DNA of 64,000 nucleotides from Escherichia coli (GCF_044324785.1 NZ_CP172127.1); one strand, 5' to 3'; counted from the stretch's first letter, positions 8,116 to 10,839 are shown. Translations and numbers: made by a program. The notes: generated by a model not told the origin, from the sequence alone.

Positions 8116-9510
8116 TTTAAGCACACGTTGTCAATATTATTTGTTCCTGCGCCTGGAAATAAAATGATGATAAAGATGCGGCAAGTGAATTTGCCGCAAT
8201 TGCTACCTTTTTAGCAAATCCGAGGCACCTAATGGAACAATATGATCAAATTGGCGCAAGACTGGACCGCTTGCCTTTGGCCCGGTTTCATTATCGTATA
8301 TTTGGTATTATAAGCTTTAGTCTGTTATTAACGGGTTTTTTGAGTTATTCAGGCAATGTTGTTTTAGCAAAGCTGGTAAGCAATGGATGGTCAAATAATT
8401 TCCTCAATGCCGCCTTTACCTCGGCATTAATGTTTGGTTATTTCATCGGCTCTCTTACCGGTGGGTTCATCGGTGATTATTTTGGGCGGCGCAGGGCTTT
8501 TCGCATAAATCTTCTCATCGTCGGTATTGCGGCAACAGGGGCCGCTTTTGTCCCTGATATGTACTGGCTCATCTTCTTTCGCTTCCTGATGGGCACAGGA
8601 ATGGGGGCGCTGATTATGGTTGGCTATGCTTCGTTTACGGAGTTTATCCCCGCGACGGTGCGTGGAAAATGGTCCGCGCGGCTCTCATTTGTCGGTAACT
8701 GGTCGCCCATGTTGTCTGCGGCGATAGGCGTGGTGGTTATCGCTTTTTTTAGTTGGCGGATAATGTTTCTGCTGGGTGGTATTGGCATACTGTTAGCCTG
8801 GTTTCTCTCAGGTAAATACTTTATTGAGTCGCCTCGATGGTTGGCGGGGAAAGGACAAATCGCAGGTGCAGAAAGCCAACTTCGTGAAGTAGAGCAGCAA
8901 ATTGAAAGAGAGAAGAGTGTTCGTTTACCCCCGCTTACTTTGAATCAGAGCAACAGCAAGGCTAACATAATCAATGGTACTTTCTGGCTGCTGTTTAAAG
9001 GGAAAATGTTACGACGTACATTAGTCGCGATTACTGTTTTAATTGCAATGAACATTTCACTTTATACCATCACCGTATGGATACCGACCATATTTGTTAA
9101 CTCCGGCATTGATGTCGATAAATCAATATTAATGACTGCTGTTATTATGATTGGTGCTCCGGTAGGAATATTTATTGCGGCATTAATTATTGATCATTTT
9201 CCTCGTCGATTATTTGGCTCCGCCTTACTTATTATTATTGCCGTGTTAGGCTATATCTATTCAATTCAGACTACAGAGTGGGCGATTTTAATCTATGGCC
9301 TGGTGATGATCTTCTTTTTATACATGTATGTTTGCTTCGCGTCGGCGGTTTATATCCCGGAGCTTTGGCCAACGCATTTACGCCTGCGCGGTTCAGGTTT
9401 CGTTAATGCCGTCGGACGGATCGTCGCGGTCTTCACGCCTTATGGCGTTGCGGCACTATTAACGCATTATGGGTCAATCACGGTGTTTATAGTGCTTGGC
9501 GTGATGTTAG

Positions 9511-10705
9511 GGAAGGTGCGAACAAGTCCCTGATATGAGATCATGTTTGTCATCTGGAGCCATGGAACAGGGTTCATCATGAGTCATCAACTTACCTTCG
9601 CCGACAGTGAATTCAGCAGTAAGCGCCGTCAGACCAGAAAAGAGATTTTCTTGTCCCGCATGGAGCAGATTCTGCCATGGCAAAACATGGTGGAAGTCAT
9701 CGAGCCGTTTTACCCCAAGGCTGGTAATGGCCGGCGACCTTATCCGCTGGAAACCATGCTACGCATTCACTGCATGCAGCATTGGTACAACCTGAGCGAT
9801 GGCGCGATGGAAGATGCTCTGTACGAAATCGCCTCCATGCGTCTGTTTGCCCGGTTATCCCTGGATAGCGCCTTGCCTGACCGCACCACCATCATGAATT
9901 TCCGCCACCTGCTGGAGCAGCATCAACTGGCCCGCCAATTGTTCAAGACCATCAATCGCTGGCTGGCCGAAGCAGGCGTCATGATGACTCAAGGCACCTT
10001 GGTCGATGCCACCATCATTGAGGCACCCAGCTCGACCAAGAACAAAGAGCAGCAACGCGATCCGGAGATGCATCAGACCAAGAAAGGCAATCAATGGCAC
10101 TTTGGCATGAAGGCCCACATTGGTGTCGATGCCAAGAGTGGCCTGACCCACAGCCTAGTCACCACCGCGGCCAACGAGCATGACCTCAATCAGCTGGGTA
10201 ATCTGCTGCATGGAGAGGAGCAATTTGTCTCAGCCGATGCCGGCTACCAAGGGGCGCCACAGCGCGAGGAGCTGGCCGAGGTGGATGTGGACTGGCTGAT
10301 CGCCGAGCGCCCCGGCAAGGTAAGAACCTTGAAACAGCATCCACGCAAGAACAAAACGGCCATCAACATCGAATACATGAAAGCCAGCATCCGGGCCAAG
10401 GTGGAGCACCCATTTCGCATCATCAAGCGACAGTTCGGCTTCGTGAAAGCCAGATACAAGGGGTTGCTGAAAAACGATAACCAACTGGCGATGTTATTCA
10501 CGCTGGCCAACCTGTTTCGGGCGGACCAAATGATACGTCAGTGGGAGAGATCTCACTAAAAACTGGGGATAACGCCTTAAATGGCGAAGAAACGGTCTAA
10601 ATAGGCTGATTCAAGGCATTTACGGGAGAAAAAATCGGCTCAAACATGAAGAAATGAAATGACTGAGTCAGCCGAGAAGAATTTCCCCGCTTATTCGCAC
10701 CTTCC
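9511..10705 (+). mobile_element. IS5 insertion sequence, complete 1195-bp copy
   Basis: Left end GGAAGGTGCGAACAAG (9511-9526) and right end CTTATTCGCACCTTCC (10690-10705) form 16-bp imperfect inverted repeats; flanked by a direct 4-bp TTAG duplication (9507-9510 and 10706-10709); encodes InsH. Confidence 0.95.
9579..10559 (+). CDS. insH: IS5 transposase InsH (326 aa)
   Basis: Track ORF 9543..10559; start placed at [35 protein letters not shown]..., the recognisable IS5 transposase N-terminus. Confidence 0.93.
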
Positions 10706-10839
10706 TTAGTGCTCTGTGCGCTGGTTCTCTCCATTTTTGGCATCGAAACGCGGAAGGTGTCATTGGAAGAGATTTCTGAGGTGAATTAAATCTTTCGTTG
10801 ATGGCGTCAATTGCCAGAGGTACCACTGACGTGTTTTAT

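Follow-up and report, generated by a model that had tools for sequence, protein, structure and literature searches.

A recent insertion of a canonical IS5 element in ydjE, the gene of an orphan MFS transporter, in one lineage of Escherichia coli

Analysis of a 64,000-nucleotide stretch of Escherichia coli DNA (GenBank:NZ_CP172127.1; assembly GCF_044324785.1), referred to below as the window and numbered from its first nucleotide, revealed a complete IS5 element that splits the transporter gene ydjE after codon 426. In the course of events that we propose, an intact canonical IS5 transposed recently, in one E. coli lineage, into a TTAG target (a YTAR sequence) at ydjE codons 426/427, and the four target bases were duplicated upon insertion. 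Seven residues encoded by the element (GKVRTSP) thereby take the place of the C-terminal half of the predicted transmembrane helix 12 (TM12) of YdjE, together with its conserved IETRK motif and cytoplasmic tail. The resulting allele most likely encodes a non-functional or severely destabilised form of a dispensable orphan MFS transporter, and its fixation was probably brought about by drift or hitch-hiking and not by selection, neutrality being our assumption. Taken as a whole, this account, i.e. a recent canonical insertion in one lineage with most likely loss of function and probably neutral fixation, is in our judgement very probable.

The element occupies positions 9511–10705 and is exactly 1195 bp long, with its transposase gene, ins5A, on the + strand. 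Over its full length it was 100% identical to many copies, on chromosomes and plasmids, that are annotated as "IS5-like element IS5 family transposase", in agreement with the preliminary description, which had called it a complete IS5. Sequence reading located the terminal inverted repeats at 9511–9526 (ins5A-proximal end, GGAAGGTGCGAACAAG, + strand) and 10690–10705 (distal end, GGAAGGTGCGAATAAG on the − strand), both fitting the 16-bp imperfect pattern GGAAGGTGCGAA(C/T)AAG. The motif GGAAGGTGCGAAYAAG, searched with two mismatches allowed, occurred twice in the 64-kb window, at the two IS5 ends, versus 0.06 occurrences expected by chance. The repeats had been described as intact over 16 bp; they are indeed present and their pairing ends after 16 bp, but only 15 of the 16 positions match, and because the sequences are identical, exact IS5 copies elsewhere carry the same mismatch. 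By the same reading, direct copies of TTAG flank the element on both sides, at 9507–9510 and 10706–10709, as had been reported, and fit 5′-YTAR-3′, the documented IS5 target motif (PMC5009759). The transposase ORF (9543–10559, + strand) is uninterrupted; it starts with the ATG at 9543 and encodes 338 aa, another ATG at 9579 giving a 326-aa form. It scored 365.5 bits against the NCBIfam model NF033581 (IS5 family transposase; cut-off, 140 bits) and covered the full model (1–285); the exact protein was present on at least 1000 contigs. Every sequence-level feature by which IS5 is defined, namely length, inverted repeats, 4-bp duplication and an intact DDE transposase, was found in this copy. The IS5 of E. 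coli K-12 (IS5 family, IS5 group) has the same length (1195 bp), the same repeat at each end and a 338-aa transposase as well, and likewise duplicates a 4-bp YTAR target (PMC5009759). The element itself thus does not differ in any way from the known IS5; the insertion site alone is new when compared with the 5,426 complete E. coli genomes searched, and we have an ordinary strain-specific insertion and no new kind of element. Judging from its identity to widespread copies, it would be expected to be capable of transposition.

The ydjE reading frame runs into the ins5A-proximal end of the element and, as had been noted previously, stops after seven IS-encoded residues, at a TGA (9531–9533). The truncated frame (8232–9533, + strand) encodes 433 aa, i.e. 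426 native residues plus GKVRTSP, ending in ...GVML-GKVRTSP, and the protein is exactly that of WP_395765636.1/XJR02362.1. The codon for the G at the junction, GGG, is made up of the last base of the left TTAG and two bases of the IS. The original 3′ end of the gene is still present in frame past the right duplication (10709–10789, + strand), with codons 427–452 (VLCALVLSIFGIETRKVSLEEISEVN) at 10709–10786 and the stop codon at 10787–10789. The displaced codons number 26, so that the 27 given in the preliminary description is correct if the stop is counted and one too many otherwise. In-silico deletion of 9511–10709, comprising the IS and one TTAG, yielded a 452-aa YdjE ending in ...GVML-VLCALVLSIFGIETRKVSLEEISEVN, which has the same length as YdjE of MG1655 and differs from it in 12 of the 452 residues (3 from YdjE of strain N3). 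By sequence and by synteny, with ydjF upstream and pncA downstream, it is the orthologue of K-12 b1769. The wider neighbourhood was also as described, ydjLKJIHG and ydjF lying upstream and the convergent pncA-ansA downstream. In MG1655 the locus carries no IS, in line with the preliminary description: ydjE (b1769) is there an uninterrupted gene of 1359 bp encoding 452 aa, and the reference gene does not end at the position of 9533. It was also noticed that MG1655 reads ATG TTA TTG at the target position (TTAT, Leu427), whereas the window, N3 and the drafts GCA_037485505.1 and GCA_018769445.1 read ATG TTA GTG (TTAG, Val427). Since MG1655 has TTAT, not TTAG, the YTAR site used by this IS5 is missing in K-12. 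The anticipated empty site with a single TTAG was accordingly found in N3 and the two drafts, but not in K-12.

To place the cut in the protein, we turned to the restored YdjE. Pfam Sugar_tr matched residues 55–450 (E = 7e-37) and MFS_1 matched with E = 2e-35; because the Sugar_tr match runs to residue 450, the segment that is lost belongs to the transporter domain. YdjE is listed in the MFS superfamily as sugar-porter type 2.A.1.1.92, with all NCBIfam subfamily models below their curated cut-offs: the sugar-porter subfamily model TIGR00879 gave 80.3 bits against a cut-off of 237.8, and the best-scoring model, TIGR00895 (aromatic acid/H+ symport), was also under its cut-off. The hydropathy profile has an unbroken hydrophobic block at residues 404–443, and the last long helix of a single-sequence AlphaFold model is at 415–435, the model being of low confidence (pLDDT 51, pTM 0.23) and used for its secondary structure alone. 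Reading of motifs identified IESPRWL after TM6, PELWPTHLRLRG before TM11 and IETRK after the last helix; these were interpreted from what we take to be the sugar-porter signatures, with IETRK presumably at the position of the sugar-porter PETKG motif. Hydropathy, family alignment with motifs and model secondary structure together point to a TM12 at about residues 414–437. The truncated protein keeps 426 of 452 residues (94%), with TM1–11 intact, and the cut after Leu426 is predicted to bisect TM12, leaving about 12 hydrophobic residues followed by GKVRTSP and removing the other half of the helix, IETRK and the cytoplasmic tail. The earlier proposal that the last transmembrane helix is lost is supported to this extent and refined, in that the cut falls within the helix and takes half of it away together with IETRK and the tail.

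YdjE is an orphan transporter for which export of acetophenone and 3-phenyllactate has been proposed from metabolomics (PMC10971958). Loss of ydjE by knock-out leaves strains viable, and such strains have served in screens (PMC10971958, PMC9405208); these, together with a separate ISKpn26 insertion in strain HeN100 described below, indicate that the gene is dispensable.

The distribution of the insertion was determined by searching 5,426 complete E. coli genomes. A 400-bp probe for the left junction matched none of them with at least 80% coverage, and no true match for the right-junction probe was obtained among the same genomes. The single right-junction match with at least 80% coverage, in HeN100, was rejected, as it joined a piece of ISKpn26 with the ydjE tail, the IS there being about 540 bp upstream. 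The reconstructed empty site, by comparison, was matched in 5,419 of the 5,426 genomes, and the view that the insertion is strain-specific is thereby supported. In N3 (GenBank:NZ_CP031609.1), the closest complete genome, ydjE is uninterrupted; the window and N3 are collinear over all 64 kb at 99.2–99.5% identity, the sole structural difference is the IS5 plus one TTAG, and ydjE is the only disrupted gene among the 58 fully contained genes compared. After removal of the IS and one TTAG, the window was 100.000% identical to draft GCA_037485505.1 over 5,642 bp across the empty site, and identical to draft GCA_018769445.1 over 3,854 bp. The empty site is thus found on otherwise identical sequence, and sequence comparison therefore shows the insertion to be very recent. 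This recency also shows that an identical IS5 copy was active in the lineage. The exact 433-aa product was present on three contigs, and the allele appears to be confined to one clone. In NCBI the product (WP_395765636.1/XJR02362.1) is on a 5.48-Mb contig and is filed as a plain "MFS transporter", without a pseudogene flag. The insertion is an ordinary event that public databases already contain.

On the downstream side, the 213-aa pncA (10882–11523, − strand) is intact and convergent with ydjE. The spacer between them contains a strong hairpin (10833–10882; 12-bp core stem 10840–10851/10863–10874) left untouched by the insertion (z = −4.1 for the + strand, −3.0 for the − strand). A U tract follows it on neither strand, and a consensus scan found no terminator-like site there. 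The consensus promoter and terminator scan of 9300–11000 gave no promoter-like site and nothing above chance. Upstream of ydjE, the promoter scan of 7150–8300 gave no more sites than chance, with none convincing in the ydjF-ydjE spacer, and the Rfam scan of the whole window had no match in or near ydjE::IS5. A second hairpin was observed in the ydjF-ydjE spacer at 8177–8198, with an 8-bp GC-rich stem (TGCGGCAA-GTGAAT-TTGCCGCA); it was scored as terminator-like on the − strand, and about 12 nt beyond it there is a T-rich stretch on the + strand. This hairpin may separate the transcription of ydjF and ydjE. As for transcription towards the element, ins5A has the direction of ydjE (+ strand), and 9 nt separate the ydjE stop (9531–9533) from the first ins5A ATG (9543) downstream; because of this arrangement, any transcription of ydjE would read into the transposase gene.

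Three other explanations were weighed. An assembly artefact, for example a chimeric join through a repeat, deserved consideration because many E. coli genomes have several copies of IS5, a copy with at least 80% coverage being present in 2,476 of the 5,426 complete ones, and repeats are the usual places of assembly errors. Against it, the duplication is a perfect 4 bp, the IS has its exact length, and excision restores the frame with 100% identity to GCA_037485505.1. In addition, a Logan contig from run ERR13187251 crosses the left junction and ends 29 bp inside IS5, with one mismatch to the window in 6,308 bp, and the 433-aa product is found on three contigs and in NCBI. Crossing by an independent assembly concerns the left junction only; the right one is supported by exact identity of the IS5 and exact identity of the flank to GCA_037485505.1, and when an independent contig for it was sought through the exact pncA product, a common one (510 index blocks), only empty-site contigs surfaced. 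Given the independent short-read contig across the left junction and the NCBI record, an artefact is therefore excluded for practical purposes, its probability being negligible. It is a different question whether the truncated YdjE might still work, fully or in part, leaving the insertion phenotypically silent. Retention of TM1–11 and of most residues would be compatible with this, and the PGAP-derived record names the 433-aa product as an intact MFS transporter. However, the remnant of TM12, some 12 hydrophobic residues to which the charged GKVRTSP is joined, is too short to span the bilayer, and the truncated protein lacks IETRK, at the presumed PETKG position and within the Sugar_tr match. 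In LacY, the permease becomes unstable and inactive when a truncation extends into helix XII. From these considerations, based on sequence and the predicted topology, the truncated YdjE is quite probably destabilised or inactive, and a working transporter is distinctly unlikely.

The remaining alternative holds that the insertion is adaptive or regulatory, either by changing the expression of neighbours (e.g. through antisense read-out into pncA-ansA) or because selection favoured the loss of ydjE. Activation by IS5 has been documented for bgl, glpFK, flhDC and fucAO, and transcripts from its ins5A end can cross the element and leave via its 3′ end (PMC11894529). In all of the documented activations, however, the element had inserted ahead of a promoter or operon, whereas all that follows the right end of the present copy is the 81-bp ydjE tail (codons and stop), the spacer, whose hairpin is intact, and the pncA 3′ end, and 9300–11000 is devoid of promoter-like sites. 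Native ydjE transcripts already head towards the ydjE-pncA spacer, to which read-out would add little that is new, and the allele, with its exact protein on 3 contigs and an empty site in the closest relative, is apparently that of one clone. Since only the displaced ydjE tail and the convergent pncA 3′ end lie beyond the right end, activation of neighbouring genes by this IS5 is unlikely, and the possibility raised earlier that the element alters their expression finds no support at this locus. An adaptive or regulatory role on the whole is, in our estimation, very unlikely. We thus retain the reading of a recent insertion with probable loss of YdjE function and probably neutral fixation.

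Another insertion in the same gene is found in E. coli HeN100 (GenBank:NZ_CP044443.1), in which ydjE is interrupted by ISKpn26 and annotated as a pseudogene. The two cases share an IS5-family element, its orientation, the interrupted gene and a 4-bp YTAR-type duplication (TTAA in HeN100), but the elements are different, ISKpn26 being 91.4% identical to the IS5 of the window, and so are the sites, that of HeN100 corresponding to window positions of about 8964–8967, at about codon 245. In the extracted region of NZ_CP044443.1, ISKpn26 is located at 2001–3204, about 540 bp upstream of the site of the window IS5. The same region (about 3896–4663) contains an IS1 inserted into the left arm of the hairpin between ydjE and pncA; its 9-bp duplication, TACAATGCC, corresponds to window positions of about 10844–10852. 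Furthermore, contig ABASXN010000002.1 of GCA_018769445.1 (283 kb, identical sequence) ends inside ydjE at the equivalent of window position 8971, a few bases from the HeN100 ISKpn26 site. Its terminal bases are plain ydjE sequence, and this end could reflect another IS insertion or just an assembly break.

As regards the host background, 34 records had at least 99% identity to positions 1–9510, whereas for 10710–54000 only N3 reached this level (99.1–99.6%), all other complete genomes being at 98.4% or less; drafts GCA_037485505.1 and GCA_018769445.1 were 100% identical over the stretches seen. By these identities, the background is rare among complete genomes. Identity between the window and N3 is a mosaic, many genes being 100% identical but astD 97.1% and ynjF 91.6%, which suggests patches of recombination. 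The ynjF patch (22005–22625) is short and highly divergent, its neighbours being at 98–99%, and was probably imported by recombination. Five genes carrying a frameshift annotation in N3 have intact ORFs in the window (astE 36485, chbC 42194, cedA 49512, ydiY 57112 and espL1 60091, the last on the − strand), each differing by a single 1-nt gap. With 16 gap openings in 22 kb between the window and N3, the N3 pseudogenes at these five loci are probably indel errors in the N3 assembly. The intact 632-aa ORF at 58193–60091 (− strand) corresponds to a gene whose N3 annotation is type III secretion effector EspL1; its counterpart at this position in K-12 is, we assume, the arpB pseudogene. The only Rfam match above the gathering score in the window was the ES036 (CssrF) sRNA at 40001–40043 (− strand; 42.9 bits vs. 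a threshold of 37.6), which is located in the cho-nadE spacer, downstream of nadE.

In E. coli K-12, nmpC::IS5 is the only copy with detectable ins5A mRNA; this mRNA depends on the nmpC promoter, and the copy is dominant in IS5 transposition, acting mainly in cis (PMC11677980). The present insertion resembles it in being nested in a host gene, with ins5A and that gene pointing the same way. However, in nmpC::IS5 ins5A is transcribed from the host promoter, whereas the scan of the hairpin-containing ydjF-ydjE spacer yielded no convincing promoter. By analogy, transcription from a ydjE promoter or from the ydj cluster might enter ins5A and make this copy the dominant, cis-acting source of transposition in the strain, a prospect that we consider unlikely. 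Ribosomes terminating 9 nt before the ins5A ATG could add translational coupling. If the copy does behave in this way, IS5 mobility would be tied to whatever signal induces the YdjF-controlled locus.

WP_395765636.1 provides an example of annotation pipelines passing an IS-truncated gene as intact. The ydjE::IS5 allele, probably a null form of an orphan transporter gene, distinguishes one E. coli clone, and its junction could be used as a clone-specific PCR marker. It also represents a further natural case of a co-directional IS5 in a host gene, the geometry that was found in a 2024 study to control IS5 activity in K-12 (PMC11677980).
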